Source: Candidatus Aegiribacteria sp. MLS_C (GTDB lineage Bacteria > Fermentibacterota > Fermentibacteria > Fermentibacterales > JCC-6). Taken from it: a DNA stretch of 64,000 nt. The number at the start of each line of letters is the position of its first letter. The stretch's first letter is position 1. The notes beneath the pieces were generated by a model. It had not been told where the DNA came from. It made no database searches and was given only the letters and a program-made list of their open reading frames with translations. Where the stretch lies: contig LQBI01000024.1 in NCBI GenBank assembly GCA_002030045.1, positions 202,848 through 266,847 on the forward strand, read 5' to 3'. Positions 592-39,188 of this stretch are shown piece by piece. A program made the translations under genes and the position numbers.

Positions 592-621
592 TGGGAGCGC
601 CTCACGCGTCCTGCGAGGAGA

Positions 622-1701: not shown

Positions 1702-1722
1702 GTTACCAGCCCGTTCATGGTA

Positions 1723-2067
1723 TTACCCGGTGGATTCCATGTCGGAGGTGTACTTTACGATTGTCCTGCGACCATCCTCCGTGATCCTGGTGAAGAATAG
1801 ACCTATTCCGTAGGATCCGTCGGAGAGTTCCTCCTCCCTTATGACCACTGCCCGGGCAGGTATCTCGGGGCTTCCGTCTATCCTCAGGACAAGGTTGACC
1901 CTGGTCAGTTCGCCGAGGCTCCTTGAACTCACGCAGTAGATCCCCGAAGCGCTGATGTTTATGGCGGTCGCCGGAAGCATCGGCATGTCCTTCGGGCTGA
2001 CGCTCAGCTCGCAGTCGACACTGGCCCTGGAGAACAGTCTCTTCTCGGAGAGGGGGTTTTCGTGCAC
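1723..2067 (-). CDS. PilZ domain protein (c-di-GMP binding).
   Basis: RxxxR-like KRLFSR element and N-I-S-A-S-G matching the (D/N)xSxxG PilZ motif. 114 aa. Confidence 0.55.
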   Translation of the reverse strand: MHENPLSEKRLFSRASVDCELSVSPKDMPMLPATAINISASGIYCVSSRSLGELTRVNLVLRIDGSPEIPARAVVIREEELSDGSYGIGLFFTRITEDGRRTIVKYTSDMESTG

Positions 2068-2449
2068 TGTCGATCTGCCTTTCGATGCCGCATTAACCTT
2101 CGATCAGGATAATGCCAATGCTACCCCTGAAGTTCCGGCGTGTCAATGTTCACCCCAGTCTGAAGGCACTCCGCGCCTTCTTCCGGCAGTGCTTTACTGA
2201 ACGGCTCTATTCCGGTCCGCTCCCATTGGTTCCAGGCCAGTGAGCATACTTCCGATTCTGCGGCGGCAGGACAGCGGCACTTGCGGCCGGCGGATATTTT
2301 TCGATATTTCAGGTATTGTTCTGTTCACGGGGTGCTTCAGGACCTTCAGGAAGGTTGTCTGTAACAGGGTACGGTTCTACCGTCCAACCCTCGGTTCTTG
2401 TTCATGTCCTGGAGCGCAGTAAATAGTAGTTCTCAAACAGGAGGTGAAA

Positions 2450-2875
2450 ATGAGCTACCTCAGCGGTATTTGGCTGGTCGTACTGGGTATCCTTGCGGCG
2501 CCGAACCTCATCATATCCAGGAAGCCCGAGGCGAAGGAGATCATCGCAAAGATGGTCCCCTACCAGGGCTGGTTCGGTGCTATATCCGCAGTCTATGGGG
2601 TCATCGACATAATCAGGTTCATCGGCCGGCTCGACTGGTTCGAGTACATTCCCGTCGGAATGATAACCTTCATCGCGGGCGCCGTGGTCACACTTGCCCT
2701 GGGTCTTCTTCTCGGCATAGGCGTGATCAAGTCCTTCGTGAGTTCCGACGAAGCCAAGGCCAAGATGGACGAGATGATAGCCAAGCTCGCTCCGAAGCAG
2801 GGAACCCTCGGGCTCCTGGGTATCATCATCGGTCTCTGGATCATAGTCTACCGTCTTCTGGACCTCGCTCTCTAG
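2450..2875 (+). CDS. Small integral membrane protein, unknown function.
   Basis: Four predicted TM helices. GGAGG RBS 5 nt upstream of ATG 2450. Followed by a strong terminator. Confidence 0.5.
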   Translation: MSYLSGIWLVVLGILAAPNLIISRKPEAKEIIAKMVPYQGWFGAISAVYGVIDIIRFIGRLDWFEYIPVGMITFIAGAVVTLALGLLLGIGVIKSFVSSDEAKAKMDEMIAKLAPKQGTLGLLGIIIGLWIIVYRLLDLAL

Positions 2876-2897
2876 TTCTCAGGGACATGACACAGCC

Positions 2898-2929
2898 GGG
2901 AGCGGTCAACGACCGCTCCCGTTCTTTTT
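2898..2929 (+). terminator. Rho-independent terminator.
   Basis: GGGAGCGGTC-aac-GACCGCTCCC perfect 10-bp GC-rich stem followed by GTTCTTTTT. Confidence 0.75.
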
Positions 2930-3030
2930 CGGGCCTTCTCGTGCAGCGGCTGCAGGGAGTGTATTGACAGACGGCGGCCATCGAGTAGCTTCAGTCTGAT
3001 CACCGTCAAGAGCAATGAAGGGGGTGGAGA

Positions 3031-4383
3031 ATGCCGATAACGCAGCAGCAGGGCGACTACATCAGGAAGCTCATCGCCAGCGGCGCGCGGAGCAGGGCGG
3101 TGCTTGTGCTCAAGAAGATGCACCCGGCGGACATCGCCGACCTTTTCGGTACGCTGACCCCACCCGAAGCAACCATCCTGGTGGAACTCCTCTTCACGCA
3201 GAAAATGGCGGACAAGGTCCTTCTTGAACTGCCGGAAGGCATACTCCTCGAGGTTCTCGGCCGCATGGAGGATTCCAGGGCGGCGGAAATGCTCTCCCTC
3301 CTTGAATCCAACGACGCTCTGCTCTTCCTTCAGGCCCTTCCGGAGGATCGCAGGGACGAGATACTCCAGCTCCTGCCCCCTGTCCGGAAGCACCGAATAG
3401 AGCAGCTGCTCATCTATCCCGAGGATTCCGCCGGATACGTGATGAGCGACAGTTTCATGTCCATCAGCACCGAACTCACGGCCCAGCAGGCGGTGGAGGT
3501 AATCAGGGAGCAGAGCGAGGACGTGGACGTACCCTTCTACGTCTACGTTACCGGCGAGACGGGCAGGCTCACCGGGGTCGTCCCCCTACGCAGGCTGGTC
3601 ACCTGCCCGCCTGACACCCCCGTCAGGAGCCTGATGATGGCGGACCCATTCACGGTCAACGTGAATTCCGACCGCGAGGAAGCCGCCATTCTGGCCAGGA
3701 AGTACGACATCATGGCCATTCCGGTGGTGGACGACAACCACCGGCTGCTGGGGGTCATACCCGGCGACAGCCTGTTCGATGTAATGGAGGAGGAAGCCAC
3801 CGAGGACATGTACAGGATGGCCGGCCTCTCGGAGGACGACAGGATATTCAGCCCGGTCTCCACCGCATTCCGCCAGCGATTCCCCTGGATATGGGTCAAC
3901 CTGTTGACCGCCTTCGTGGCCTCGACTGTGGTCAGGGCCTTCCAGGGCACCATAGAGTCAGTGGCCACCCTTGTGGCCTTCATGCCCATAGTCGCCGGAA
4001 TGAGCGGCAACACCGGGAACCAGTCCCTGATCGTCATCACCAGGGGCATAGCCCTTGGAGAGATGGAATTCTCCTCCAGCCTCAGGGCCATCTTCAAGGA
4101 GGCCAGGGTCGGTGTCCTGCTGGGCCTGGTGGCGGGAACGATTGCCGCGGGCGTTGCCCTTGTCTTCCCGGGGAACACCGATCCCCTGCTCCTGGGCCTG
4201 GTGATTTTCATGGCCATAGTCGGCAACATGGGTCTCGCCGGGCTCCTGGGCGCCGCCATACCGCTGGTGCTGAGGTCCCTGGGCAGGGATCCTGCGCTGG
4301 GCAGCAACATCCTTCTGACCGCATTCACGGATTCCCTGGGCTACCTTCTGCTCCTCGGCCTGGGAATGCTCGTGATACTGTAG
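3031..4383 (+). CDS. mgtE: Magnesium transporter MgtE.
   Basis: MgtE N-domain, tandem CBS region (PFYVYVTGETGRLTGVVPLRRLV) and a C-terminal 5-TM divalent-cation-transporter domain. GGGGGTGGAG RBS. Confidence 0.85.
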   Translation: MPITQQQGDYIRKLIASGARSRAVLVLKKMHPADIADLFGTLTPPEATILVELLFTQKMADKVLLELPEGILLEVLGRMEDSRAAEMLSLLESNDALLFLQALPEDRRDEILQLLPPVRKHRIEQLLIYPEDSAGYVMSDSFMSISTELTAQQAVEVIREQSEDVDVPFYVYVTGETGRLTGVVPLRRLVTCPPDTPVRSLMMADPFTVNVNSDREEAAILARKYDIMAIPVVDDNHRLLGVIPGDSLFDVMEEEATEDMYRMAGLSEDDRIFSPVSTAFRQRFPWIWVNLLTAFVASTVVRAFQGTIESVATLVAFMPIVAGMSGNTGNQSLIVITRGIALGEMEFSSSLRAIFKEARVGVLLGLVAGTIAAGVALVFPGNTDPLLLGLVIFMAIVGNMGLAGLLGAAIPLVLRSLGRDPALGSNILLTAFTDSLGYLLLLGLGMLVIL

Positions 4384-12305: not shown

Positions 12306-15300
12306 ATGGAAACGATACTGTTGATTCTGAACGTTCTGCTGGTCCGCGCCCCGGTGATAACTGAAGTCGCATCTAACCCGCTCATCGAGACCTCCGGCGA
12401 ATTCATCGAGATATTCAACCCCGACATCAATCCCGTGATCATAGAAGGATACTCGGTGACCGACGGCGACGCGCTGGACTTCCTCATTCCATGGGACGAG
12501 AGCCTTCACGGTACGTTCCCTCACGCCGGCATGGTCCTGGGTACCGACACCATTCCCGCCGAGGGCTTCGCCCTGCTCTTCGAACTGGACTACGCAGGTG
12601 ACGGCTGTTACGACATCCCGCCTGGCACAGTCATACTGACCACCGGCGACCATGCCCTTTGCAACGGTCTCTCGGCCTCGTCGGACCCGGTCACTCTGTT
12701 CGATGCCGGCGGCACCGCTGACAGCAATGCGGTCAGCACATACGGAACGCCCGTCCCTTCGGACATCTGGGAAGAGAGGGACGACGACGGTCTCGACGGA
12801 ATACCCTTCGATCCCGGAGAGAACATTACCGTGGAGAGGTACCCCTGGAGTTCCCCCGACACGGAGGGGGCCTGGTTCGCCGGGCCCGAGGGGGGCACTC
12901 CCGGCGCCCATGCCCAGGCCCCTCCCGATACCCTGAACATCTCCTGCGACTCCCTGTGGACCGTCCCCGTGGACCCGCTGCCGGGCCAACCCTTCGAGAT
13001 CCTCGCCCGATTCACCTGCTGGGGCAATGTTTCTCCGTCATCTGGAACCATCACCATCTTCCTGGATGCCGAAGGCGACTCGATACCCGACGCCGGGGAG
13101 ACCCTGGCCCAGTACCCGGCCACCTCCCTTCAACCCGGTGCCTCCATGACTTTCAGCGCCTTCACATCCCTTGAGCAGGGGTGGTACCTTCCCTCCGCCC
13201 TGTCGGAAGTCCCGGAGGACGAATACCCGCAGGACGATTTCCGGTCCGTCCCGGTGGCGGTTGGAGGCGGAATAGACCCCGTGGTCACAGAAGTGATGTG
13301 CAATCCCCTGGACGAGGACAGGGGCGAATACATCGAGATACACTTCCCCGGACCCGGCATCTTCCCGCTGTGCGGGTGCCGGTTCACGGACGGCGACGCC
13401 GTGGACATCATCGTTCCCTGGGACCAGTTACCGCTGACGGACCCCGACGCGGTCTACTCGGAATACCTCCCCGGTGGCTTCTACGGCGTCGTCCTCGATC
13501 CAGAGTACGTCTCGGGCATGCAGGAATACGATCTGGCCGATTCAACCTACGTATTCACCGTGGGCAACACCACCATCGGCAACGGGCTCACGGGAAACGA
13601 CCCGATAACGCTCTACGACTTCGAGGGGACCGCACAGGCCAACGTCATGTCCACCTACGGCACACCTCTCCTGAACGACGATCCTCTCATGTGCGACGAC
13701 GACGGCCTCGACGGCATTCCCTTCGATCCCGGGGAATTCCACAGCGTGGAGAGGAAATCGCACGAGCTGCCGGATGAGGAGTACTGCTGGGCTGTTTCAC
13801 CGGAGGGGGGAACACCGGGGGGCCCGGCAGTATTCTTCGATACTCTGGATGTTTCCGTCGATGCCATCCTGATAGAACCCGACACGCTCCAGCCCGGGCA
13901 GCCGGTGCAGATCTCGACGGTAGTGAGGAACACGGGCACGGCGACGGCCGCCGGGATCGAGCTGACCGTCTTTCTCGATTCCGACGCGGATTCCCTCCCG
14001 CAGCCGAACGAGATACTCCTGTCCCCGGTCATGGATTCACTTCTTCCCGGTCTCGAGGACACGATATCCGTCACGGTAACGGGACCGGAAGAGGGATACT
14101 ACCTGGCGGCTGCAAGGGTCTATCTTCCCGGAGACTCGGATCCGGACAACGACTTCGCGAACAGGAGCTTCAGGACAGGGGACGGGGTCCCGGTGATAAT
14201 CACCGAGGTGCTCTGCAACCCGGAGAACGAGGATACCGACGAATTCGTGGAGGTCCACTATCCCGGTCCCGGGGTGTTCGATGTCACCGGATGCTCCTTC
14301 ACCGACGGCGACGCACTGGACTGGCTCCAGACATGGGACCAGGGACTCGGGACCATAAACGACCCCGAAGCGGTAATATCCCCCTACCTGCCCGCCGGCA
14401 CATACGCGGTCATCCTCGACAGCGAGTACCCCCAGGGGACTCAGCCCTACGACCTCCCTTCCGGTACCCGCGTCCTCACCACCGGGAACACAACCCTGGG
14501 AGACGGACTCACGGGCACCGACCCGGTAACCCTGTACGGCCATGAGGGAACATCAATATCCAGCATCATGTCAACCTACGGCACTCCCCTTCTGAACGAC
14601 GATCCTCTGCTCTGCGACGACGACGGTCTGGACGGAATACCCTTCGACCCGGGAGAGGGCCTCAGCGTCCACCGGATCGACCCCGCCCTTCCGGACGCGG
14701 AGGAGAACTGGTTCGCCCCCCCGACTGGGCCAACTCCCGGGGGGCCTCCCCCCTTCTTCCAGGAGGGAATGAACGCATGCGGGCTTCTCCTGGACTGCTT
14801 CCCGCCAATGGGCCATGGCGGAAAGGAAACGGATCTGATGGCAGAATTCGTCAACACAGGCACCGACACCATTCCTTCGGGAACGATGCAGGTACTCTTC
14901 TTCGCGGACATCGACCAGAGCGGCACGCCTGCCCAGGGGGAGCTGATAGACAGCTTCCTGTGCGGTGCTCTGGCACCCGGCGACAGCCTCGTCGCCGACT
15001 GCGGATGGACCGCTCCGGAAGGCACGGTGGAACTTATTTCGGTCTCCGCCTGCCCCGGCGATTCCTTCCCCCAGGACGACACCCTCCGCTGCACATGGAA
15101 CCTGGCAGGGCCTGTCGTGGTGAACGAGATAATGTACGCTCCCGCTCCGGGGGAGCCGGAGTGGATAGAAATATTGAACAGGTCGGAGGTACCGGTGGAG
15201 ATAACGGGATGGACCACCGAGGACTCAAAGGACCGGGTTGTCTTCTGCCAGGACAGCATGGTCCTGCAGCCGGATTCCTTCGCCCTTATAGTGCCGGACC

Positions 15301-15926
15301 CGGACGAGTTCCTGCAGTTCTGGCCCCAGGTAACCTGCCCCCTGCTCCAGCCGTCATCCTGGCCTGTGCTCAACAACACCACGCAGTCCGGAGAGGAATG
15401 GGCCGACATCATCATCATTCGTGACAGCCAGACGCAGTCAATAGACTACGTCCCCTACGACGACGACTGGGGCGCCTCCCAGGGCGCAAGCCTGGAGAGG
15501 ATCGACCCTGACCAGCCGGGGTTCCCGGAAACCAACTGGACGGGGTGTTCGACGACGGCCACCCCTGGAGAGACAAACAGCTGCTCTGGAGGAGGGGAAG
15601 GGCCGGGGAGGTATCTCCACTACTTCCCCGACCCCTTCTCCCCCGACGGCGACGGCATGGACGACGTTCTGACAATAGAGATGCACTTCGGCCATTCCGA
15701 GAACGAGGTGACCCTGGAGGTATACAACGTGCAGGGCAGGCTCATTCTCAGGCTCCTCGACCGTGAAACCTGCGGCCCCTCCAGGACCGTTTTCTGGGAC
15801 GGCACGGGAGAGGGCGGCTCCAGACTGCCCGTAGGAAGGTACATCATCTACCTCTCATCGAGAGCTGAAGACACCAGAGAATACCGCGAGGACTGCGGAG
15901 TTGTGGTCCTGGCCAGGCGCCTGTGA
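12306..15926 (+). CDS. Giant secreted protein (1206 aa) with four lamin-tail domains (LTD), three tandem repeat units of about 310 aa each, and a C-terminal FlgD-Ig-like / T9SS-type sorting domain.
   Basis: LTD motifs: VITEVASNPLIETSGEFIEIFNP, VVTEVMCNPLDEDRGEYIEIHFPGPG, VIITEVLCNPENEDTDEFVEVHYPGPG, VVVNEIMYAPAPGEPEWIEILNRSEVPVEITGW. Repeated ...STYGTPLLNDDPLxCDDDGLDGIPFDPGE blocks. C-terminal FSPDGDGMDD...TVFWDGTGEGG...RYIIYL. Confidence 0.7.
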   Translation: METILLILNVLLVRAPVITEVASNPLIETSGEFIEIFNPDINPVIIEGYSVTDGDALDFLIPWDESLHGTFPHAGMVLGTDTIPAEGFALLFELDYAGDGCYDIPPGTVILTTGDHALCNGLSASSDPVTLFDAGGTADSNAVSTYGTPVPSDIWEERDDDGLDGIPFDPGENITVERYPWSSPDTEGAWFAGPEGGTPGAHAQAPPDTLNISCDSLWTVPVDPLPGQPFEILARFTCWGNVSPSSGTITIFLDAEGDSIPDAGETLAQYPATSLQPGASMTFSAFTSLEQGWYLPSALSEVPEDEYPQDDFRSVPVAVGGGIDPVVTEVMCNPLDEDRGEYIEIHFPGPGIFPLCGCRFTDGDAVDIIVPWDQLPLTDPDAVYSEYLPGGFYGVVLDPEYVSGMQEYDLADSTYVFTVGNTTIGNGLTGNDPITLYDFEGTAQANVMSTYGTPLLNDDPLMCDDDGLDGIPFDPGEFHSVERKSHELPDEEYCWAVSPEGGTPGGPAVFFDTLDVSVDAILIEPDTLQPGQPVQISTVVRNTGTATAAGIELTVFLDSDADSLPQPNEILLSPVMDSLLPGLEDTISVTVTGPEEGYYLAAARVYLPGDSDPDNDFANRSFRTGDGVPVIITEVLCNPENEDTDEFVEVHYPGPGVFDVTGCSFTDGDALDWLQTWDQGLGTINDPEAVISPYLPAGTYAVILDSEYPQGTQPYDLPSGTRVLTTGNTTLGDGLTGTDPVTLYGHEGTSISSIMSTYGTPLLNDDPLLCDDDGLDGIPFDPGEGLSVHRIDPALPDAEENWFAPPTGPTPGGPPPFFQEGMNACGLLLDCFPPMGHGGKETDLMAEFVNTGTDTIPSGTMQVLFFADIDQSGTPAQGELIDSFLCGALAPGDSLVADCGWTAPEGTVELISVSACPGDSFPQDDTLRCTWNLAGPVVVNEIMYAPAPGEPEWIEILNRSEVPVEITGWTTEDSKDRVVFCQDSMVLQPDSFALIVPDPDEFLQFWPQVTCPLLQPSSWPVLNNTTQSGEEWADIIIIRDSQTQSIDYVPYDDDWGASQGASLERIDPDQPGFPETNWTGCSTTATPGETNSCSGGGEGPGRYLHYFPDPFSPDGDGMDDVLTIEMHFGHSENEVTLEVYNVQGRLILRLLDRETCGPSRTVFWDGTGEGGSRLPVGRYIIYLSSRAEDTREYREDCGVVVLARRL

Positions 15927-16215
15927 AATCCATCAAAGGATTCCCGAATACCGGAACGAAACTCCCCAATCGAAAAGGCTCCCATGGGCATCAATGATAA
16001 CCTGAACCCCTTGTTATGCTGCTGCGGCATAACATCGAGAATTCCGGTGTTAACAAGCACAAGTGTATTGCCCTTGAACGTGTTATCGATATTGACTCGC
16101 ATATATCAATGCTTTTATTCTCTGTCAGCATAACCGGGCAACGGTGTTAACTTAACACGCTGCCGCATAATCATTGTTATGAAGAACCAGTTTGATTCTA
16201 CCGGAAAGGACCATT

Positions 16216-17940
16216 ATGAAAAAACTCTACTATGGAGACAATCTGGATGTTCTCCGAAGAGAGATAGCTAGCAATTCTATTGATCTTATATACTTAGATC
16301 CACCTTTCAACTCTAAAAAATCCTACAATGTGTTATTCTCTGGACCTACCGGTGAAGCAAGAGCACAAATACAGGCGTTCGACGATACTTGGAAATGGAC
16401 GCCAGAGACCGAGAGTATCTACATAGACATGCAAAACGGAAGCGTACCAGCAAGGGTTGCAGATGCGGCTCAAGCATTTCGCTCATTACTTGGTGAAAAT
16501 GATGTTCTCGCATACTTAATAACAATGGCTCCAAGATTAGTTGAGCTGCATAGAGTACTAAAATCAGAAGGATCCCTCTTTCTACATTGTGATCCTGCAG
16601 CAAGCCACTATTTAAAAGTGCTACTGGATGCAGTATTTGGAGGGCGGCGATTCCGAAATGAAATCGTGTGGAAAAGAACTGGTGCCCATACAACCCCAAG
16701 AAGGTTCGAAACAATACATGATATATTGTTGTTTTATGCAAAGGGCGATAATGCATACTTTAATCCAATTAAAACACCTTACACTAAGGATCATGTTGAT
16801 TCAAGATATACCGAAGACGAAAAAGGTAGGCTGAAATTCGTTACAGGCGGGAACATCCTTTCAGGACCTGGTGCTACAAACGGCGACTCGGGCCAACCAT
16901 GGAAAGGTTTTGATCCATCAAGCAAGGGTCGGCACTGGGCAGTACCAGGTTATCTTGCAGAGCAGATGCCAGAGGGATTCTCTGAATTGTCGGTAAGAGA
17001 AAGACTGGATGCTCTCTATGATGCCGATCTAATTGAAATAAAGAAAGGAGCTGAATGGCCGCATCCGGTTAAATACCTTGCGGATGATGATGGTAAATTT
17101 CTATCAGATATCTGGGCATACCAACCAGGTACAGAAGGCGTACTATACGGTACAGACCAAGGAATTGACGCAGATGTGCAATGGATCGGTCCAACAGATC
17201 CAGAAGATCTTGGATATCAGACTCAGAAACCGGAAGGTCTCTTGGATAGGATTATTAGCTCAACATGCCCGCCTGAAGGGATTGTGCTTGATCCATTCTG
17301 TGGTTGTGGAACCACAATTGCTTCCGCACAAAGGCTTGGTCGGAATTGGATTGGGATTGATATCACCTACCTAGCTATTGATTTAATCGAGAAAAGACTC
17401 GTTGCCCAGTACGGTGATAACATATCCGATGAATACGAGATCTTTGGTATTCCGAGAGACATGGATGGAGCAATGACTCTCTTCAACTCAAATCCATTTG
17501 ACTTTGAGAGATGGGCAGTTTCTATTGTAAATGGCCAGCCTAATGAAAAGCAAGTCGGTGATAGAGGTATAGATGGGATCGTGAGATTCCCACTTGATGT
17601 TGCTGGACGAAAGAGCGCGAAAGCAATTGTCTCTGTCAAAGGCGGAAAGTCACTCAACCCAGGAATGGTTAGAGATCTAATGGGTACAGTAGATGCAACA
17701 CAACAAGCAGAGATAGGTATTCTAATCTGCTTAGAAAATCCCACAAAAGGTATGCTTGATGCTGCGGCAAGAGCTGGGGTCTACGAATGGCCCTTAACAA
17801 GAGAGCGTTATCCAAAGGCTCAAGTCATAACAATAGAAGAGTTACTAGATGGCAAAAGACCACATATGCCTCCAACATTGCTCCCATACATTAAGGCTCA
17901 GAAATTTGAAGATCCGAGTGGGCAGATGAAGTTGCTATAG
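16216..17940 (+). CDS. Beta-class N6-adenine/N4-cytosine DNA methyltransferase with a C-terminal Mrr-cat-like restriction-endonuclease-fold domain.
   Basis: Motif IV DPPF (LIYLDPPFNS) precedes motif I (VLDPFCGCGTT). C-terminal GDRGIDGIV...VSVKGGKS resembles an Mrr_cat D...(E/Q)xK core. Low GC. GAAAGGA RBS. Confidence 0.75.
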   Translation: MKKLYYGDNLDVLRREIASNSIDLIYLDPPFNSKKSYNVLFSGPTGEARAQIQAFDDTWKWTPETESIYIDMQNGSVPARVADAAQAFRSLLGENDVLAYLITMAPRLVELHRVLKSEGSLFLHCDPAASHYLKVLLDAVFGGRRFRNEIVWKRTGAHTTPRRFETIHDILLFYAKGDNAYFNPIKTPYTKDHVDSRYTEDEKGRLKFVTGGNILSGPGATNGDSGQPWKGFDPSSKGRHWAVPGYLAEQMPEGFSELSVRERLDALYDADLIEIKKGAEWPHPVKYLADDDGKFLSDIWAYQPGTEGVLYGTDQGIDADVQWIGPTDPEDLGYQTQKPEGLLDRIISSTCPPEGIVLDPFCGCGTTIASAQRLGRNWIGIDITYLAIDLIEKRLVAQYGDNISDEYEIFGIPRDMDGAMTLFNSNPFDFERWAVSIVNGQPNEKQVGDRGIDGIVRFPLDVAGRKSAKAIVSVKGGKSLNPGMVRDLMGTVDATQQAEIGILICLENPTKGMLDAAARAGVYEWPLTRERYPKAQVITIEELLDGKRPHMPPTLLPYIKAQKFEDPSGQMKLL

Positions 17941-17947
17941 GAATCAT

Positions 17948-18018
17948 AACCACAGCGTGAACCAGACGCCTGTAAGAGTTCGGGGTAAATGCTAACGGCG
18001 CTGGTTACGCTGATTGTT
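17948..18018. repeat. Family-1 attC-like imperfect palindromic element, copy 1, immediately 3' of the methyltransferase.
   Basis: AACCACAGCGTGAACCAGACGCC ... GGCGCTGGTTACGCTGATTGTT: the arms are reverse complements. Bounded by AAC...GTT. About 85% identical to copy 2. Confidence 0.6.
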
Positions 18019-18034
18019 ATCTAGAAAGAAGACC

Positions 18035-18940
18035 ATGAATCAACTGCCACAGATGCTTTGTCCCGAGTGCTTAAGACCCATGGAGAATAACGGAAGTACA
18101 GTAAAACCAACAGCAAAGTACAAAGACTGTATTCGAAAGTGTCAAGCCTGTGGTATTGGTTACTCGAATTCAGTAGCAAAACCTTCACTGATTTTCGAAG
18201 ATCCTAGAAAGAACATTCCTGGTTTTGTGGACAGCTCAGATTTTCTCAAAATCCTGGAGAAATCCAATAACCGAAGGAATATCAGTAACAAGAAGTGCAA
18301 AGCGGGATTCTCAACATCAGAGGACGCAGTTACTTATACCTTCGTTAAATCCTTTTCTCAAGCTGATTCAATCGAGCGAATGATGAAAGTACTCGGACTT
18401 GAGATGAACAGCAACCATGTTGATTTGTTTCTATGGGGATGTCCTATTTCAAAAGGCACGGACATTACATTGATTAATAGGATGAATTCTTTGCTAAGTA
18501 ATGAGTTTGCGGAGAGGGCAAATTCTCTCACAGAGCCAGACATTATTCTGAGCGTTGAGGGCTACGGTATTGTCATTATTGAAGTGAAGTTGCACAGTTC
18601 TAACGAAGTTAAAGCAACTGAAAAGTTAAGCAATTATCTGGATCGCAGCTTCTATACTAATGTAGCAAAGGCAAAGTCCTCTCAGCATTATGAGCTAGTT
18701 AGAAACTGGTCAATTGGTAACGCCTTATCCGAGGGTTGCAACTTCACACTTATCAATTTAGGCAAAGAATCATTGTTTACAGACCGAAATGCATCAAAGC
18801 TACAGCTGTTTAAGGAATCACTAAACTGTAATAAGAGGCGCCAGTTTGCTCAGGTATCCTGGGAAGAAATTCTGAACAGATTAGAAGAGAGGGATTCTCA
18901 GTTAAAAGAATATCTGAAGAGGAAAACAAAGTATAGATAA
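18035..18940 (+). CDS. Putative restriction endonuclease: N-terminal Zn-ribbon plus a PD-(D/E)xK nuclease core.
   Basis: CPEC...CQAC ribbon. EPDIILSVEGYGIVIIEVK reads as PD-x13-EVK. Adjacent to the methyltransferase. Low GC. Confidence 0.55.
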   Translation: MNQLPQMLCPECLRPMENNGSTVKPTAKYKDCIRKCQACGIGYSNSVAKPSLIFEDPRKNIPGFVDSSDFLKILEKSNNRRNISNKKCKAGFSTSEDAVTYTFVKSFSQADSIERMMKVLGLEMNSNHVDLFLWGCPISKGTDITLINRMNSLLSNEFAERANSLTEPDIILSVEGYGIVIIEVKLHSSNEVKATEKLSNYLDRSFYTNVAKAKSSQHYELVRNWSIGNALSEGCNFTLINLGKESLFTDRNASKLQLFKESLNCNKRRQFAQVSWEEILNRLEERDSQLKEYLKRKTKYR

Positions 18941-19007
18941 CCACAGCATGAACCAGAAGCCTGCAAGGAAATGGGTAAGGTTAACGGCTCTGGTTACGCT
19001 GATTGTT
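18939..19007. repeat. Family-1 attC-like element, copy 2, immediately 3' of the endonuclease gene, overlapping its stop codon.
   Basis: AACCACAGCATGAACCAGAAGCC ... GGCTCTGGTTACGCTGATTGTT. Shares an 18-nt exact match (CTGGTTACGCTGATTGTT) with copy 1. Confidence 0.6.
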
Positions 19008-19050
19008 GTGCGTATAAATGCTATAGACACTTAACGCTAGTGGAGGAAGA

Positions 19051-19812
19051 ATGTCAGATGAAATGAAGGGGAAAGTGGCGCTGATTACCGGTGGTAGTTC
19101 TGGAATCGGTAAAGCAGCTGCCTTTGCGTTTGCCAACGAGGGAGCACAGGTAGTAATCGCCAGCAGATCAGAGGATACTGGAGAGAAAGCTGCCAGCGAT
19201 ATAAGACAATCCGGTGGAAATGCGAAATGGATTAGGGCAGACGTAACGCAGGAAGACCAAGTTAAGACATTGGTAACACTGATATTAGAGGAGTATGGCA
19301 GGCTTGATTATGCCTTCAATAACGCAGGATCAGGTGGAAAAGGCGGTTGGACTACTGAGATAGAGGAAGAGGACTGGGATAAGACAATATCAGGCTTTCT
19401 GAAGAGTGTATGGCTGTGCATGAAACACGAACTACCAGCAATGCTTGATAACGGACAAGGTTCGATAGTGAATAATTCATCTGTAGACGGTAAACGAGGT
19501 TTCCGTTGGGACCCCGTTTACTCAGCTGCGAAGCATGGAGTGATTGGGTTAACAAAATCATCTGCATTGCAGTATGCCCAGCAAGGAATCCGTATTAACG
19601 CAATCTGCCCTGGATGGATAATAACCCCTCCAGTTGAGAAGATACTAGAGCATAATCCCGAAGCAGGGAATGGTATGCTTCTTCACCAGCCAATTGGAAG
19701 ATTCGGTAAACCTGAGGAAGTAGCTCAGGCAGTTGTCTGGCTGTGTTCAGACAAGTCATCATTGATTACAGGCACAGTGCTTCCAATTGATGGAGGCTAT
19801 CTAGCGATATAA
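19051..19812 (+). CDS. SDR family oxidoreductase (3-oxoacyl-ACP reductase-like).
   Basis: TGGSSGIGKA (Rossmann motif), NNAG, YSAAK (YxxxK). GGAGGA RBS. Confidence 0.85.
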   Translation: MSDEMKGKVALITGGSSGIGKAAAFAFANEGAQVVIASRSEDTGEKAASDIRQSGGNAKWIRADVTQEDQVKTLVTLILEEYGRLDYAFNNAGSGGKGGWTTEIEEEDWDKTISGFLKSVWLCMKHELPAMLDNGQGSIVNNSSVDGKRGFRWDPVYSAAKHGVIGLTKSSALQYAQQGIRINAICPGWIITPPVEKILEHNPEAGNGMLLHQPIGRFGKPEEVAQAVVWLCSDKSSLITGTVLPIDGGYLAI

Positions 19813-19821
19813 ACCGCACGG

Positions 19822-19897
19822 CAACAGAATGCAGCAGAACAGCGTTTGGGAGTTTAACCTGGGTTTTTGCAGTCTGCTGATTCAGAGCGTTCAATAG
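19822..19897. repeat. Family-2 attC-like structured repeat, copy A, 3' of the SDR gene.
   Basis: ...AATGCAGCAGAACAGCG...(loop)...TTTTTGCAGTCTGCTGATT..GAGCGTTCAAT, with imperfect inverted arms CAGCAGAAC.GC / GCAGTCTGCTG. Confidence 0.55.
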
Positions 19898-20293
19898 AAA
19901 AGATAGAAGTCATATCAAACCGGACAGAGATTATCAAGGTAGATAATCATCATTTTAATGATGATATTACAGTCGGTCTTTTCGACAATTTGCAATCCTT
20001 AAGCGAATCTCCGAAAATCAGGTATTCTAATGCTTTGCTGATGCATCAAAAGCAGACTAACCAATTCCGACTAATTGGGTACATTGTCCGAATATAGAAA
20101 TAATAAAATAATTCACACACTCATGTAACTTGTTATTAAATTTTTAAAAGGTTATCATTGTAGTATGTGTGAAGAGTTAATTCTTTCACTGTGAAATCAA
20201 TCTGGGCTATGAAACAAGTCTAACTAACATCGTGTTACATCCTGTCAATAAGTTTACTTCTTTCGAGCTTATGATATTCGGAAGGAGAAAGTC

Positions 20294-22147
20294 ATGTGTT
20301 CACGGGTTATTTTCCTTGCTACTTATCTGGTTATGTTCGCGCCCTTTGAAGTTTACGCAGGTACCGCAACCCAGACTGACTGGTCCGGCGGTGACGGAAT
20401 CTTCGGACCGGTTATAGACTGGGGCAATGAGTTCTATTCTGATACAGACATTGAATGCTACAACAGTCCTTTCAATATTGTTCTCCAGAAAACAATGGCT
20501 CTGACTCCTCTGGAACATACCGTTTGCGGGGATTTCGTTATGCCTGCGGGAGTGTACTCTGCTGATGTCAACGGAGACGGCTATATGGATGTTCTCGGAG
20601 TATCCGTTGCTGCTAGTAATATTACCTGGTGGGAGAATCTGGATAGCTCGGGCACAAGCTGGGCTGAACACATTGTTGATGGAGATTTCGATGGTGCCCG
20701 ATCAGTGTATTCCGCTGATGTCAACGGAGACGGCTATATGGACGTCCTCGGAGCAGGCTGGACAGCCAACGACATCACCTGGTGGGAGAGTATTGACGGC
20801 TCGGGAACAAGCTGGACGGAACACATCGTAGATGGGGAATTCCATACCGCCGCCTCAGTGTATTCCGCTGATGTCAACGGAGACGGTTACATGGATGTCC
20901 TTGGAGCATCTTACAATGGCTCTTTGATCTCTTGGTGGGAGAATCTGGACGGTTCGGGTACCAGTTGGACGGAACATATTGTTGATGGGGCTATCAACAG
21001 TGCTATTTCAGTATGTGCTGCAGATGTCAACGGAGACGGCTACATGGATGTTCTCGGAGTTTCTCAAAATTCATCCTATGTTGCCTGGTGGGAGAATGTG
21101 GACGGCTCGGGCACAAGCTGGGCTGAACATACAGTTGACGCGTCTTTCGGGGGTGCCTATTGGGTATCCTTCGCGGATGTCAACGGGGACAGTTACATGG
21201 ATGTTCTGGGAGCTGCCGCTGATGATGACGAAATCACCTGGTGGGAGAACGTTGACGGCTCGGGCACAAGCTGGATGGAACATATCGTAGATGATAATTT
21301 TGATTATGCCTCATCAGTATACTCCGTGGATGTCAACAGAGACGGCTACATGGATGTCCTGGGCTCAGCTCAATATGCCAACGACATCACCTGGTGGGAG
21401 AACACTGACGGCTCGGGCACTAGCTGGACGGAACATACCGTAGATGGTGACTTCGGTGGTCCTTTCTCAGTGTTTTCCGCTGATATCAACGGAGACGGCT
21501 GGCTGGATGTCCTCGGAGCTGCATATCTTGATAACGACATAACCTGGTGGGATCTGACCGAATATCTCCCTGATGGTTCGCTTGAATCCAGCGTGCTAAA
21601 TGTACAGGAAAGCCCAGACTGGCAGACAATTGACTGGACCTGTACCGAGCCTGCCGGGACAAGTGTTGCTGTGCAGGTGAGGGCTTCGAACAATTCTTCC
21701 AGCATGGGAGCCTGGTCGGATACACTTACAGCTCCCTGTACCCTGGAAGGAATCCTGTCCGACGAAGACAACTATTTCCAGTACAGACTCATACTGAGCA
21801 CCACCGATTCGTTTCTTTCTCCCGTGCTTCACGATGTAGCTGTAGGCTGGGAGCCGTTCACCGGAACGCATGAAGGATCCCGGGTAGAGGTTTCCACATA
21901 CTCTCTATACGGCGCGCAGCCAAATCCGGCACTGGGTCATGCAACGCTGGTCTTTTCGCTGCCTGTTGATTCAAAAGCTGAACTGACAGTATACGACCTG
22001 ACCGGGCGAGTGGTTTACTCCATTAATGGTGTGTACAGTACAGGCGTGCACGAGGTGATACTCGAAGGTCTTGCAAGTGGTGTGTACATGGCCCTTATGA
22101 CCTCGGAAGAATTTGTGGCAACGCTCCAATTCGTTGTGATCGATTAG
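20294..22147 (+). CDS. Secreted FG-GAP/VCBS-repeat (beta-propeller) protein with a T9SS type-A C-terminal sorting domain.
   Basis: Signal peptide. Eight or more tandem repeats of about 60 aa (VYSADVNGDGYMDVLG...ITWWEN.DGSGTSWTEH.VD) carrying a DxNxDGxxD Ca-binding loop. C-terminal QPNPALGHATLVFSLP...LTVYDLTGRVV...SGVYMAL. Confidence 0.75.
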   Translation: MCSRVIFLATYLVMFAPFEVYAGTATQTDWSGGDGIFGPVIDWGNEFYSDTDIECYNSPFNIVLQKTMALTPLEHTVCGDFVMPAGVYSADVNGDGYMDVLGVSVAASNITWWENLDSSGTSWAEHIVDGDFDGARSVYSADVNGDGYMDVLGAGWTANDITWWESIDGSGTSWTEHIVDGEFHTAASVYSADVNGDGYMDVLGASYNGSLISWWENLDGSGTSWTEHIVDGAINSAISVCAADVNGDGYMDVLGVSQNSSYVAWWENVDGSGTSWAEHTVDASFGGAYWVSFADVNGDSYMDVLGAAADDDEITWWENVDGSGTSWMEHIVDDNFDYASSVYSVDVNRDGYMDVLGSAQYANDITWWENTDGSGTSWTEHTVDGDFGGPFSVFSADINGDGWLDVLGAAYLDNDITWWDLTEYLPDGSLESSVLNVQESPDWQTIDWTCTEPAGTSVAVQVRASNNSSSMGAWSDTLTAPCTLEGILSDEDNYFQYRLILSTTDSFLSPVLHDVAVGWEPFTGTHEGSRVEVSTYSLYGAQPNPALGHATLVFSLPVDSKAELTVYDLTGRVVYSINGVYSTGVHEVILEGLASGVYMALMTSEEFVATLQFVVID

Positions 22148-22295
22148 CACCGGCGATCCCGTAGAGTTCAACGAGCTTCACACTCTTCTGGCCTCAACTG
22201 CCAACTGGGAAAGCTTGTTAGCATTTTAAACGCAATGAAGTGAAGCTATAGAACATTTGCAGTATGCACATCTGGAGTATTACTTTGCGGATAAA

Positions 22296-22377
22296 ATTGA
22301 ACAAGCAAATGCAGCAGAACTGCGTCAGAACTATTGAAACTCAGGTTTTTGCAGTCTGCTGATTTAAGCGTTCAGTC
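22296..22377. repeat. Family-2 structured repeat, copy B, about 150 nt 3' of the FG-GAP gene.
   Basis: ATTGAAC-AAGCAA-ATGCAGCAGAACTGCG...GGTTTTTGCAGTCTGCTGATT-TAAGC-GTTCAGT. The R''-L''...L'-R' style layout has AAC/GTT boundaries. Confidence 0.55.
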
Positions 22378-22510
22378 GACCGCAGTCGGAAAAGAAATAA
22401 ACGGAAAATGAATATGAAAACGCTGCAGGAAAAGATAAACAAGTATGCGGAAAGCGGTCGACTGAATGGGCCGCGTATTACCACACGCTAGTTCATCCGC
22501 CTGCGGCGTC

Positions 22511-22551
22511 TGAACAAGCGTATGCAGCAGTCATTGAATCCGAACAAAATG
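22511..22551. repeat. Degenerate partial copy of the family-2 repeat (5' arm only).
   Basis: TGAACAAGCGTATGCAGCAGTCATTGAATCCGAACAAAATG resembles the 5' halves of copies B and C. Confidence 0.35.
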
Positions 22552-22647
22552 AAAGCAAGGCTTATACCTCCGCCGCCGGGAAACTCATCCCGGCTCAATT
22601 GCTGATCTTTTGCTTGTGGATCCATGTTTTTCTAGTCGTTGAATGAT

Positions 22648-23007
22648 CTAGGCTTTCTCGTTCTTTTCGTAGTGAACCCGTGCGTCTCGCAGAAGATGTA
22701 CACAATGGGTATTAAGGCTTTCTCCATGGCGCAGGGCGTCTATGGTAAGTTCTTTGTGTAGATCCTTGCCGACTCGAAGAACAAACTTGCCCGAGTAATC
22801 TTTGCCAGCGGTTTCAGCAGGAAGGGTTGCACCGTCTTGCCCGTATATCTCGATCCACTCTTCTACTACCTGGCAGAGTTCGCGATATACCTTAGCTTCA
22901 TCGTCTCCATGAACACCTCCAAGCATAAGCCCGGGACATGTGCCGATGTAGCAATGATCTTCTTCCGACCACTCGACAATCTTGAGATATCGGTCACTCG
23001 TTTTCAT
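22648..23007 (-). CDS. hicB: HicB family antitoxin.
   Basis: 119 aa. HicB-like fold features (YIGTCPGLMLGGVHGDDEAKVYRE). Overlaps hicA by 4 nt. Confidence 0.6.
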   Translation of the reverse strand: MKTSDRYLKIVEWSEEDHCYIGTCPGLMLGGVHGDDEAKVYRELCQVVEEWIEIYGQDGATLPAETAGKDYSGKFVLRVGKDLHKELTIDALRHGESLNTHCVHLLRDARVHYEKNEKA

Positions 23008-23198
23008 TCCATCACCTCGCGGATTGCTTTCTCTACCTCGCGCTCCTGATACTTCTTTGCGTCCTGCGAAAGGTAACCGCTTATTGTTATCTTCGCTCCC
23101 TTGGGGTGAGTGAAGTTTCGATGGCTACCTTTTCCGCCGCGGTTTATAAAACCCGCATTCTTCAGGTCGCGAATCAACTCTCTTACTTTCCTCGGCAT
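23004..23198 (-). CDS. hicA: HicA family mRNA-interferase toxin.
   Basis: MPRKVRELIRDLKNAGFINRGGKGSHRNFTHPKGAKITISG is the canonical HicA/YcfA sequence. Confidence 0.75.
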   Translation of the reverse strand: MPRKVRELIRDLKNAGFINRGGKGSHRNFTHPKGAKITISGYLSQDAKKYQEREVEKAIREVME

Positions 23199-23454
23199 AT
23201 CTATATAGTACTACAATGATACTACAAATGTCAATGGATCAGCCTAAGACAGAGCTGTATTCAGCAATCATCAGATCCTTTGGCAATACAACCCCTGCGA
23301 AGATTACAGGCATAAACGAGTATACCGAACAGAACCGAACATACCGAACCAATCCAAGCATATCCGCCCGCGAAAGTGTTCATCCAGAGATATTGTGTAT
23401 TGAAATCGGGCTGATTATCATCAATCCAACTGGCTGGGAGTATAACCAGATCCC

Positions 23455-23537
23455 GAACACAACAACAAAATGCAGTAGAACTGCGCAGCGGTGCCTGAAG
23501 GTTATGCTTTTGCAGTCTACTGATTTTGAGTGTTAAA
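23455..23537. repeat. Family-2 structured repeat, copy C, upstream of hicA on the opposite strand.
   Basis: AAAATGCAGTAGAACTGCG...GCTTTTGCAGTCTACTGATTTTGAGTGTTAAAA. Confidence 0.5.
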
Positions 23538-23630
23538 AAGCCAAGTAATTTGCCAATCATTGTAGGGGCTATTTTGTTCCTGATTGGTTTTATTATCGTA
23601 TTACTAAACTATATCGTAGGAGGGTAACAA

Positions 23631-23903
23631 ATGGAATCGATACAAGAGGTGCATCTGTTCATTGAAGGTGGTGGAGATCAGAGACTTGTTAATGAGATTA
23701 TTCAAGCACTACACCCTGAATTTCTTAGGATACCTGGCCTGAGAATACACAAGCATGATGTTGCAAATTGGCCAGAGGAGCCTTTTGTCTATGCAGCAAT
23801 CAGTTTGAAGACACAACACGGAATCAAGTTGACGACATCCAATTGCCTCACACAAGATGGATCAGCGTACGGAAAGAAATTGTACCTGATTATGGTCAGA
23901 TAG
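23631..23903 (+). CDS. Hypothetical small protein.
   Basis: GGAGGG RBS 7 nt upstream. 90 aa. Low GC. Confidence 0.35.
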   Translation: MESIQEVHLFIEGGGDQRLVNEIIQALHPEFLRIPGLRIHKHDVANWPEEPFVYAAISLKTQHGIKLTTSNCLTQDGSAYGKKLYLIMVR

Positions 23904-24028
23904 TAGGTTGCCATAACCAGGGACAACCCTGCCTTACACTCGGTCGGGAACTCCGCTGCGCTCCTTTCCCGCCGGTGAAGGCAACATTAAGTAGAAGAAT
24001 ATGGATGAAGGAACAAAATACAGAGTGA

Positions 24029-24433
24029 TTACTCAAGGTTTGGCACAAAGTCACAGAGATATGTGACCAGAATCGGGAAGAGGTCTTCATGACGATGATT
24101 ATACCTGAACTCCTGTTCCTTCAGGTAGAGCGGGAAATTTTTGTGTGAGACACCATGATGCTTTATAAGACGCTCCTTGGCAAAACTCCAGAACCCTTCG
24201 AGACCGTTGATGTAGACACGCCCCCGGGAGAACTCCTTTCCGTGGTCAACCTTGAGATGCCTGTAACCGCAGAACATCAGGCTGTCATATATCTGGAAGC
24301 GATCGTTGTATACAATGCTTCCCCGGCGGACCTTCTTCAAAGTCAGACCGAGCACGGTCTCGGCCCTGACAGCAGGCTCCGTTCTGCTCACAGTCCTCGC
24401 GGAATTCGTATTCGAACTGTTCCAGAGCATCAT
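24029..24433 (-). pseudogene. IS1595-family (ISXO2-like DDE) transposase, C-terminal fragment only. N-terminally truncated or decayed.
   Basis: GSIVYNDRFQIYDSL..YRHLKVDHGKEF..VYINGLEGFWSFAKERL matches the DDE_Tnp_IS1595 C-terminal half. An in-frame stop lies 5 codons upstream of the first Met. GC composition shifts to host-like immediately 5' of it. Confidence 0.6.
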
Positions 24434-24949
24434 CGTTGGAATCGTGGCTTATCCTGCCGAAACCCAGTGCACCCTCTGCTAACACGACGAAGTCTTCGCC
24501 CCAGTGGTGGAGTATGGGAACTGTCCGGAGGTGCTTGGGCGCCTCCGGTCTCCACCTCACCTGCTGAAGACAGGACTATCGCAGATGATAGAAGAAGAAC
24601 AACAACCGGTCGCTTCATTTCCATTGAGGACTCCTCGACGGTCGACCGTCATGCTGACAGATGCTGACCTCCCCTTTGGGAATGGCCCGTTCAGGCTTCC
24701 CCGATCCGCAATCCGGAATTTATTGAGCACCCGCGGGATTGCCATCTTTCCCGGCGACTCAGCTCCTTTGCCGAATGATAACCGAGCGGTTTCGACCGGT
24801 CAGAGAGAAGTGGACCGTCAAGGCGCACACAGTGATCCTGCCGCATCGCGCCGGAGGCCGGTGAGGTATGTGCGGTTATCGTATTGTCCGGGGCTTCTGC
24901 CACCGCCCCGACCGGATGCACCCGCAGGACGGATTCCGGGAAATACCCG

Positions 24950-37985: not shown

Positions 37986-39188
37986 TCATACTACACCCAG
38001 TTCTTCCCCCGTCTCCCTGAATGCCCCGATGCACCTGTCCACTTGTTCGGTGGTATGGGCCGCCGAGAGCTGCACTCGAATCCTGGACTCACCTCTTGGA
38101 ACCACCGGGTAGAAGAACCCGATGGCGTAGATACCCTTTGCAAGCAGCCTGTCCGCAAACTCCTGCGCGAGGGCGGCGTCGTCCCGAAGGTGTCCGAAGA
38201 GAACGGGCACGATAGGGTGGTCTCCTTCCCGTATGCGGAACCCCGCCTCTTTCATGCCTCTCCTGAACCTTCTCTGGTTCTCTCGGAGCCTGTCCCTCTC
38301 GCTGCTGGAGCCCTCTATGATGTCCAGAACCGCCAGGGTCGTCCCGGTGATCACTGGAGCCAGGGTGTTCGAGAAGAGGTAGGGCCTTGACCTCTGTCGA
38401 AGCATCTCTATGATTTCCGACGGCCCGGATGTGAATCCTCCCGACGCTCCTCCGAGTGCCTTGCCGAAGGTCGACGTGACTATGTCGACCCTGTCGGTGA
38501 CCCCATGGTACTCCAGGGTCCCTCTCCCGGTATCCCCGATGAAGCCCGTGGCATGGGAATCGTCCACTATCACGAGCGCGCCGTACTTCTCTGCGAGGTC
38601 GCATATGGCGGGAAGCGGCGCTATGTCACCGTCCATGGAGAAGACCCCGTCGGTCACCACAGCCTTCGTCCTGCAACCCCTGGCGGTAATTAGTGCCTCC
38701 TCCAGGTCCTCCATGTCCGCGTGAGCGTACCTGAACCTCTTGGCTTTGCAGAGCCTTATTCCGTCGATGATCGAGGCGTGGTTGAGCTGGTCAGAGATGA
38801 TGGCGTCATTATCTGTTAGCAGTGGCTCGAAGAGACCCCCGTTGGCGTCGAAACAGCTGGAATAGAGGATGGTGTCTTCCTTGGACAGAAATCCCGATAC
38901 CCTTCCTTCAAGCTCCCTGTGCAGGTCCTGCGTCCCGCAGATGAACCTCACCGAGGAAAGCCCGAATCCCCGTTCCTGGAGGATACTGCAGGCTCTGTCC
39001 ACTAGACGCTGGTCCCCCGAGAGTCCCAGGTAATTGTTGGCGCAGAAGTTCAGGACCTCCCCGGTGGTCATCACCCCCACCCTTGTGCCCTGCCTTGTGG
39101 TGATGATCCTTTCCTTCTTGAACGTGCCGGATTCCCTGGCCCTCTCCAGGTTCTCCAGAAGAAGCGATCTCAGTTCGTCCGTATACAT
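37986..39188 (-). CDS. kbl: Glycine C-acetyltransferase / 2-amino-3-ketobutyrate CoA ligase (alpha-oxoamine synthase family).
   Basis: LNFCANNYLGL, SVRFICGTQDLH, YSSCFDANGG and DDSHATGF are near-identical to E. coli Kbl motifs (recalled from memory). The PLP lysine region is present. Confidence 0.8.
   Translation of the reverse strand: MYTDELRSLLLENLERARESGTFKKERIITTRQGTRVGVMTTGEVLNFCANNYLGLSGDQRLVDRACSILQERGFGLSSVRFICGTQDLHRELEGRVSGFLSKEDTILYSSCFDANGGLFEPLLTDNDAIISDQLNHASIIDGIRLCKAKRFRYAHADMEDLEEALITARGCRTKAVVTDGVFSMDGDIAPLPAICDLAEKYGALVIVDDSHATGFIGDTGRGTLEYHGVTDRVDIVTSTFGKALGGASGGFTSGPSEIIEMLRQRSRPYLFSNTLAPVITGTTLAVLDIIEGSSSERDRLRENQRRFRRGMKEAGFRIREGDHPIVPVLFGHLRDDAALAQEFADRLLAKGIYAIGFFYPVVPRGESRIRVQLSAAHTTEQVDRCIGAFRETGEELGVV

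Follow-up and report, generated by a model that had tools for sequence, protein, structure and literature searches.

Structured repeats in a low-GC island of Candidatus Aegiribacteria sp. MLS_C as probable attC sites of an integrase-less cassette array

The locus and its repeats

A 64-kb stretch of contig LQBI01000024.1 of Candidatus Aegiribacteria sp. MLS_C (hereafter the window, numbered from its first letter) carries, between about 15990 and 24100, an island of low guanine-plus-cytosine (GC) content. In it, genes for a DNA methyltransferase, a restriction-endonuclease-like protein, a short-chain dehydrogenase/reductase (SDR), an FG-GAP repeat protein, a small open reading frame (ORF), the toxin–antitoxin pair hicAB and a further small protein (orf90) alternate with structured repeats of two families. 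These repeats are very probably attC sites (59-base elements) of a Fermentibacteria-type integron. Judged from its sequence, the island reads as an array of about seven gene cassettes, from about 16177 to 23990, each closed by one attC: a cluster of attC sites lacking an integron integrase (CALIN) that starts at an attI-like site. The cassettes have a GC content of 45%, against 60% in the left flank and 59% in the right, and the repeats sit in this one 8-kb island, as searches with the repeat arms and with a covariance model found none in the remaining 56 kb of the window. A single mechanism, an integron array, explains both the low-GC island and the two repeat families. Integrons are a main means for bacteria to gather and reshuffle accessory genes and, to our knowledge, nearly all mechanistic knowledge of them comes from Proteobacteria; here this ordinary mobile-gene system would be met in a little-studied, uncultivated phylum of anaerobic digesters and sediments.

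The second repeat family, described in an earlier note on this DNA as three full copies and one degenerate half, was recovered in exactly that form by direct reading and a repeat search, with no further copy in the 64 kb. The consensus and inverted arms proposed there are also right: at up to three mismatches, the 3' arm TTTGCAGTCTGCTGATT matches three times in the window against 0.08 matches expected (none of 100 shuffles reached three), and the 5' arm alone matches five times against 1.6 expected, three of these being genuine and the other two unrelated three-mismatch matches. All copies read on the forward strand between an R'' box on the left and an R' box on the right. Copy A lies at 19816–19895, measured from box to box (R'' GCACGGC, R' GTTCAAT), and has the weakest fold of the three; copy B lies at 22296–22376, with the boxes ATTGAAC (22296–22302) and GTTCAGT (22370–22376) in which the earlier note had already seen an attC layout; copy C lies at 23457–23538 (R'' ACACAAC, R' GTTAAAA). 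The 5' half site begins at 22509 with R'' TCTGAAC (22509–22515) and reads TCTGAAC AAGCGT ATGCAGCAG..., with 68% identity over 25 nt.

A covariance model, R1, was built from the bottom strand of family 2, with the family-1 repeats kept out of its training set. In the window it scored the full family-2 copies at 62–80 bits (A, 62.1; B, 75.5; C, 79.7) and found the two family-1 repeats, copy a at 17944–18022 (R'' TCATAAC, R' GTTATCT; 27.7 bits, E = 6.7e-5) and copy b at 18935–19011 (R'' AGATAAC, R' GTTGTGC; 29.6 bits, E = 2e-5), both on the forward strand. It gave no other convincing match in the window beyond these five sites. Because a model of family 2 finds family-1 repeats on which it was not trained, on the same strand and with the same bulges, family 1 is the same kind of site as family 2. 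The R1 score depends strongly on the strand, falling from about 75 bits to about 25 bits on the opposite one, because the bulges are asymmetric. R1 detects no 3' half for the half site, where only a weak TGCTGAT...CTTGTGG is seen at about 22601–22621. A GC-rich hairpin on the forward strand at 23905–23990, flanked by GGACAAC and ATTAAGT, may tentatively be taken as a decayed attC of a third type: it folds with -19.7 kcal/mol and has three bulges on the 5' arm of the forward strand, the same arm as in the attC sites. This hairpin is undetected by R1, and the R'' box TTTTAAC predicted for the last cassette is absent.

On the forward strand the plan of family 2 is nnnnAAC, about 5 nt, AAT[G]CAGCAG[A]ACTGC, a loop of 25–30 nt, GCAGTCTGCTGATT, about 5 nt and GTTnnnn, where the bracketed bases are unpaired; family 1 has the same plan with another stem, AGCGT[G]AACCAG[A]CGCC ... 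GGCGCTGGTTACGCT. Folded as DNA, the minus strand of these sites has a stem formed by the R box, then an internal loop and then a long stem whose 3' arm bears two single-base bulges. In known attC sites (Nivina et al. 2016, PMC5027507), the two boxes of the bottom strand read 5'-RYYYAAC-3' and GTTRRRY, and the arm facing AAC carries extrahelical bases, usually G at position 16 and a conserved T at 23 or 24; IntI1 requires a 6-bp stem between these bases. The central spacer of such sites is unpaired, and their terminal structure varies. Among 44 copies of the present repeats, AAC is found in 34 and GTT in 36, the sites are 79–84 nt long and the spacer takes 2–5 nt on each side, while the 25–30 central alignment columns that make up the loop are unconserved. 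Four of the five model-detected window sites have both AAC and GTT, the exception being copy A, with GGC in its R'' box; outside these triplets the purine–pyrimidine pattern is only loosely kept, as in GTTCAGT. Every copy examined is bulged at 16 and 24 on the arm that faces AAC (the second bulge falls at 23 if the other T of a TT is counted, which gives a 6-bp stem), and the loop-proximal bulge is T in 42 of the 44.

The resemblance to attC-aadA7 of class 1 integrons is close: in both, a 7-nt R'' box with AAC at its end is separated by a 5-nt spacer from an L box that is bulged at position 16, and a stem of 6 or 7 bp, a T bulge at 23/24, a variable loop and a 7-nt R' box starting with GTT complete a site of about 80 nt; both also combine one site per promoterless ORF with a G|TT crossover footprint. 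The window family differs in having C or A, not the usual G, at position 16, in a spacer that is partly paired and covarying, and in a sequence specific to Candidatus Fermentibacteria.

Multiple alignments examined for pairing and compensatory change support a conserved paired structure. In MAFFT alignments of 30 copies, in which the R box, the spacer and the bulged stem were scored, the share of paired cells is 83.7% for the top and 84.9% for the bottom strand, compared with 22–47% when the partners are slid by 1–3 columns; in the main stem the figure is 94–96%. A column-shuffle control comes close, at 80.6–82.5%, and at most one of 500 shuffles reached the real value. Two-sided changes are found at 10 of the 25 pairs, four of them in the main stem. 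The stem base covaries (aaaat/atttt, tgaat/attca, taaat/attta), and copy C shows a compensatory two-sided change, CAGTAG/CTACTG. In the loci of relatives R1 found 13 extra copies that the search pattern described below had not picked; their stems hold 33 cells with two-sided compensatory change against 22 broken ones, in an alignment that was fitted by the model and is hence biased towards structure.

Crossover footprints, the attI-like site and related arrays

Integron recombination cuts the R' box as G|TT, and the last six bases of each R' therefore belong to the next cassette, where they were once paired with that cassette's own R''. We looked for this footprint by comparing each R' with the R'' of the next site at four variable positions. 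Of the 21 adjacent junctions, 9 show reverse complementarity at all four positions; among non-adjacent pairs the share is 1.8%, and only 1 of 46 box pairs belonging to a single site does so. In the window, GTTATCT is followed by AGATAAC, GTTGTGC by GCAC(GGC) and GTTCAAT by ATTGAAC, so that all three uninterrupted junctions between model-detected sites match; at copy A, the variable part GCAC of R'' matches the preceding GTTGTGC at four of four positions despite the mutated core. Direct reading adds the junction of the attI-like site with the first attC, where GTTATGA (16176) is the exact reverse complement of TCATAAC (17944), and R'' of the half site, TCTGAAC, matches the preceding R', GTTCAGT, at six of seven positions. 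Such complementarity between the boxes of neighbours is not predicted by a terminator, by a non-coding RNA (ncRNA) or by a transposing repeat.

The attI-like region occupies 15990–16182 on the forward strand, with its crossover at G16176|T16177 (…GCATAATCATT|GTTATGA). Its part at 16091–16179 is 81% identical to positions 4404–4486 of L016, one of the related loci, just downstream of the intI gene there (alignment score 46; shuffles 18.4 ± 2.4, maximum 34). The motif AATCATT|GTT at the crossover is common to the window and L016 and also lies beside intI in another related locus, L007. A promoter-like element, TTGACT-18-TATTCT, at 16092–16121 is conserved in L016, and the window probably retains the cassette promoter. 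The pair GTTATGC/GCATAAC, which could be thought to bound an ORF-less 'cassette 0' at 16014–16128, is more likely to represent integrase-binding-type repeats inside attI, to judge from the alignment; the additional cassette was rejected, 15990–16182 aligning with the intI–attI spacer of L016. There is no room for intI to the left of the attI-like site, because a host gene ends at 15926. A resemblance of 'SFDGF' to 'SIDGF' on the minus strand at 15930–15960 is too short to be accepted as an intI remnant.

The distribution of family 2 was followed in a scan of one genome per species with the pattern GCAGYAGAACN{15,45}GCAGTCTRCTGAT, which does not constrain the flanks of a hit. Apart from L003 (Acutalibacteraceae), a low-complexity chance match and not a family member, the 25 loci found come from metagenome-assembled genomes (MAGs) of Candidatus Fermentibacteria (Sabulitectum, Aegiribacteria, Fermentibacteraceae), from MAGs without a taxon name and from one labelled Epsilonproteobacteria. 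The flanks of the hits resolve to canonical integron boxes, for example tcCTAAC ... GTTAGAT, GTTAGGC or GTTATGC, and sites like those of family 1 are present in L001 and L010. An integrase beside family-2 repeats in L016 scores 330.5 bits with TIGR02249 (cutoff 265) and carries the IntI-specific segment ALERKYPGAGLEWKWQYLFP. In L007, a partial IntI, cut by the end of the locus, reaches 256.9 bits against the same cutoff and is followed by a toxin–antitoxin cassette, an attC, a second (reversed) toxin–antitoxin cassette and a second attC. An IntI1 sequence, employed as a probe only, likewise gives strong matches beside the repeat family in both loci. The layout of a complete integron, with intI beside attI and an array, is seen in L016 and L007 and not in the window; the repeat family is tied to integron integrases in relatives by association.

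The tyrosine recombinases of L010 and L011 were rejected as integron integrases, since neither reaches the TIGR02249 cutoff and each forms a pair with an IS91-like transposase. In both loci the recombinase–transposase pair (L010, 610–2607, minus strand; L011, 1589–3546, plus strand) ends directly beside a family-2 attC with the common flank GCGCTTAGTTCAAC, and may represent an insertion element that has attC sites as its targets.

Parts of the window cassettes recur in other Fermentibacteria arrays at 87–95% identity. The short cassette, including the half site, is 87–90% identical to two places in L013, an Aegiribacteria contig, and the sequences on either side of hicAB match L018 from Ca. 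Sabulitectum silens (22531–22597 to 3374–3439 at 95%, and 23272–23535 to 2925–3191 at 88%). The second of these stretches takes in copy C and the 180 nt upstream of it. In L018 only about 183 nt separate the two stretches, so that hicAB looks inserted into, or swapped within, an older cassette. The compositional contrast of the window is also repeated in L016, where the integrase region has 57–67% GC, positions 1–3000 have 64–77% and the cassettes right after attI have 42–55%. These observations suggest a low-GC cassette pool shared within the phylum, and the low-GC cassettes may have come from lower-GC Fermentibacteria. No paper in the library searched mentions both Fermentibacteria and integrons, and co-occurrences of related names look incidental by title.

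Mechanism, standing of the sites and alternative explanations

The attC layout of R'' and R' boxes, the first reading given in the earlier note, holds by its structural and contextual marks: box polarity, the spacer, the bulge positions, a covarying stem, one site per cassette, the crossover footprint and the integrase linkage in relatives. By the established integron model, the single-stranded bottom (minus) strand of each site would fold into an imperfect hairpin, and an integron integrase supplied in trans would bind its R and L boxes, the two extrahelical bases being read for the choice of strand. The cut would then fall between A and C of the bottom-strand AAC, which corresponds to G|TT on the top strand. 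Recombination between two attC sites would excise a cassette as a circle, and recombination of attI with attC would re-insert it.

Several observations weigh against this assignment. The perfect footprint is missing at 12 of the 21 junctions, although undetected intervening sites together with decay could account for these. The folding energies are modest (z from -1.0 to -4.4) and favour neither strand: family-1 copy a has z = -4.4 for the bottom-strand fold, copy B about -2.1 to -2.2 on both strands, and copy C -3.2 on the top and -2.5 on the bottom strand. Counts of G–T wobbles likewise show no preference for the bottom strand. Since this test of wobbles and energy showed no difference between the strands, the orientation of the sites rests on box polarity, the arm that carries the bulges, the direction of the ORFs and the position of attI. 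The extrahelical base at position 16 is C in 37 of the 44 copies, A in five and G in two, not the usual G; among the 13 copies that were not constrained by the search pattern, it is C in six, A in five and G in two. The literature having 'usually' G, a C or A here is a minor variant and does not exclude the repeats from attC. Copy A has a mutated R'' core, with GGC replacing AAC, and the half copy has no 3' arm, so that some sites are probably dead. Finally, no integron integrase or remnant was found in the 64 kb by tblastn, where the best E values were 1.5–2.4 (2.4 for the IntI1 probe, the lineage's own IntI giving a like result) and the nearest candidate recombinase matches had E > 1.

Among the alternatives, the one that fares best accepts the repeats as real attC sites. 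As a sub-case of the attC assignment, the array would be an evolutionary fossil in which recombination has ended because the genome has no functional integrase, and we give this possibility slightly less than even weight. It agrees with the lack of intI in the 64 kb, with the mutated core of copy A, the half site and the insertion sequence (IS) fragment at the end of the array, and with the view that CALINs are degraded integrons (PMC9024848). Against it, the two family-1 sites are intact, as are copies B and C, with model scores that match those of copies from integrase-bearing arrays, and an intI gene could lie elsewhere in the genome. The intact sites may still be recombinogenic; any continued recombination of family-1 copies a and b and of copies B and C depends on such an integrase elsewhere. 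We infer that intI was lost by deletion, a loss that seems confined to this gene, the attI-like site and the promoter-like element having been kept.

A very improbable reading would make the repeats intrinsic transcription terminators, or other RNA-level hairpins such as the small structured ncRNA considered in the earlier note, placed 3' of genes. They do form stable hairpins just past stop codons on the coding strand, covariation alone cannot separate a DNA hairpin from an RNA hairpin, and attC hairpins could have secondary effects on read-through. However, Rfam gave no family match to the repeats (best E 0.24, elsewhere in the region), and terminator-like sites are not enriched, with seven found against 6.4 expected from shuffles. 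Where such a site does fall within a repeat, it is a mini-stem of 5 bp on the minus strand; on the plus strand the main stem has no T-run behind it, and the coding strand shows no terminator architecture. An RNA role also leaves the AAC and GTT boxes, the complementarity between neighbouring sites and the integrase linkage unexplained. Spread by transposition, as a miniature inverted-repeat transposable element (MITE; also raised in the earlier note) or a family of repetitive extragenic palindromic (REP)-like selfish repeats, is hardly credible: the repeats are short, imperfectly palindromic, multicopy and common across a phylum, and some copies have transposase genes nearby (the IS1595 fragment in the window, IS91-like genes in L010 and L011), yet there are no target-site duplications or duplicated flanks, the orientation is strictly uniform within an array, exactly one copy per ORF stands always after the gene's 3' end, the copies are clustered in an 8-kb island and not scattered, and the flanking boxes differ from copy to copy and match the neighbouring copy, not their own, which fits site-specific recombination and does not suit transposition.

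With the repeats taken as attC sites, the array can be set beside known integron systems. Like the VCR repeats of the sedentary chromosomal superintegron of Vibrio cholerae, the attC sites have high identity within the lineage and so the look of a repeat family, and the cassettes include toxin–antitoxin genes, some of them reversed with their own promoter. The window array differs from VCR arrays in being short (about seven cassettes), in mixing two attC sub-families, in having no integrase and in its GC content of 45% in a host of 60%. CALINs are defined as clusters of attC sites lacking an integron integrase (Cury et al. 2016; IntegronFinder 2.0, PMC9024848), and in the window five model-detected sites plus a half site stand in a 6-kb span that has no integron integrase near it. 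It thus shares with other CALINs the presence of at least two attC sites without a neighbouring intI, and its size is near the reported mean of about six sites per CALIN; it differs in that its attI-like site and its promoter-like element are still present.

Integrons are well-known systems, as are attC sites and CALINs; what is new here is a lineage-specific attC family with C or A at position 16, itself a minor variant. The material adds an attC family that is cleanly defined and whose partners, attI and IntI, are present in related MAGs. With a base other than G at position 16, the family lends itself to a natural test of how strongly the identity of the extrahelical base weighs in strand choice. 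The difference in GC content between cassettes and their hosts, seen in the window as well as in L016, points to cassette flow across genera. A broader proposal, whose chances we put at about even, is that Candidatus Fermentibacteria have an integron lineage of their own, as yet undescribed, with attC sites that have C or A, not G, as the L-box extrahelical base and with a low-GC cassette pool (about 40–50% GC) common to genera whose genomes range from about 42% to more than 65% GC. Cassettes, including a restriction–modification pair split over two of them, would move between compositionally very different hosts, and the window would record one such transfer, followed by loss of the integrase.

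Cassette genes and surroundings of the array

The cassettes hold one ORF each, co-oriented except for the reversed hicAB, and five ORF-bearing cassettes face away from attI, the direction expected of cassettes without a promoter. All attC sites share one orientation and each is placed 3' of one gene, the stop codon lying 0–4 nt from R'' in three cassettes. The gene context given in the earlier note, with SDR and FG-GAP genes and hicAB, was borne out by Pfam.

The first cassette gene (16216–17940, plus strand; gene call taken from locus L026) encodes an N6/N4 DNA methyltransferase with a restriction-endonuclease-like C-terminal domain (N6_N4_Mtase, 1.6e-39; NA-iREase1, 2.8e-8). The second (18053–18940, plus strand) encodes a restriction-endonuclease-like protein (REase-ARP, 5.5e-6, just under the cutoff), and its stop codon falls within the R'' box AGATAAC. 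These two genes are adjacent and still belong to separate cassettes, each with its own family-1 attC; they would form a restriction–modification pair that is separable, in principle, by cassette excision. The third gene (19051–19812, plus strand) encodes an SDR (adh_short_C2, 5e-66). The fourth (20294–22147, plus strand), which has a 400-nt AT-rich leader upstream, encodes an FG-GAP repeat protein whose C terminus is a sorting domain for type IX secretion (FG-GAP_3, 1.6e-53; Por_Secre_tail, 5.9e-7).

The short cassette (22371–22551, plus strand) contains a 27-aa ORF at about 22411–22494 and a perfect 13-nt inverted repeat (22371–22383 and 22454–22466), and ends in the 5' half of a family-2 attC. 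It is followed by hicB (22648–23007; HicB, 1.8e-10) and hicA (23004–23198; HicA_toxin, 2.7e-10), a toxin–antitoxin pair on the minus strand with a promoter-like TTGACA-18-TACTAT at 23234–23205 (10 of 12 matches). A reversed orientation with an own promoter is common among toxin–antitoxin cassettes. The last cassette gene, orf90 (23631–23903, plus strand), encodes a 90-aa protein with no family match. Restriction–modification genes, a toxin–antitoxin pair and small ORFs without known function are cargo typical of cassettes.

At the distal end of the low-GC island lies a fragment of an IS1595-family transposase (24029–24433, minus strand; DDE_Tnp_IS1595, 3.9e-20, C-terminal part of the profile only). 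An independent Joint Genome Institute (JGI) sediment contig has the same left junction and the same array as the window and stops at this fragment. A plasmid-database search with the distal end as query (23540–24500) gave no match.

On the left the array abuts a host gene (12306–15926) that contains three internal copies of a unit of about 915 nt. Its 1206-aa product has lamin-tail domains and a CHU_C type IX secretion signal, and the FG-GAP cassette protein likewise has a type IX sorting tail. Housekeeping regions of the window are 72–77% identical to two of the family-2 loci from relatives, which places the host in that group. Outside the array, two segments 16,736 nt apart (38425–39057 and 55161–55793) are piecewise 72–92% identical and resemble paralogous minus-strand genes.

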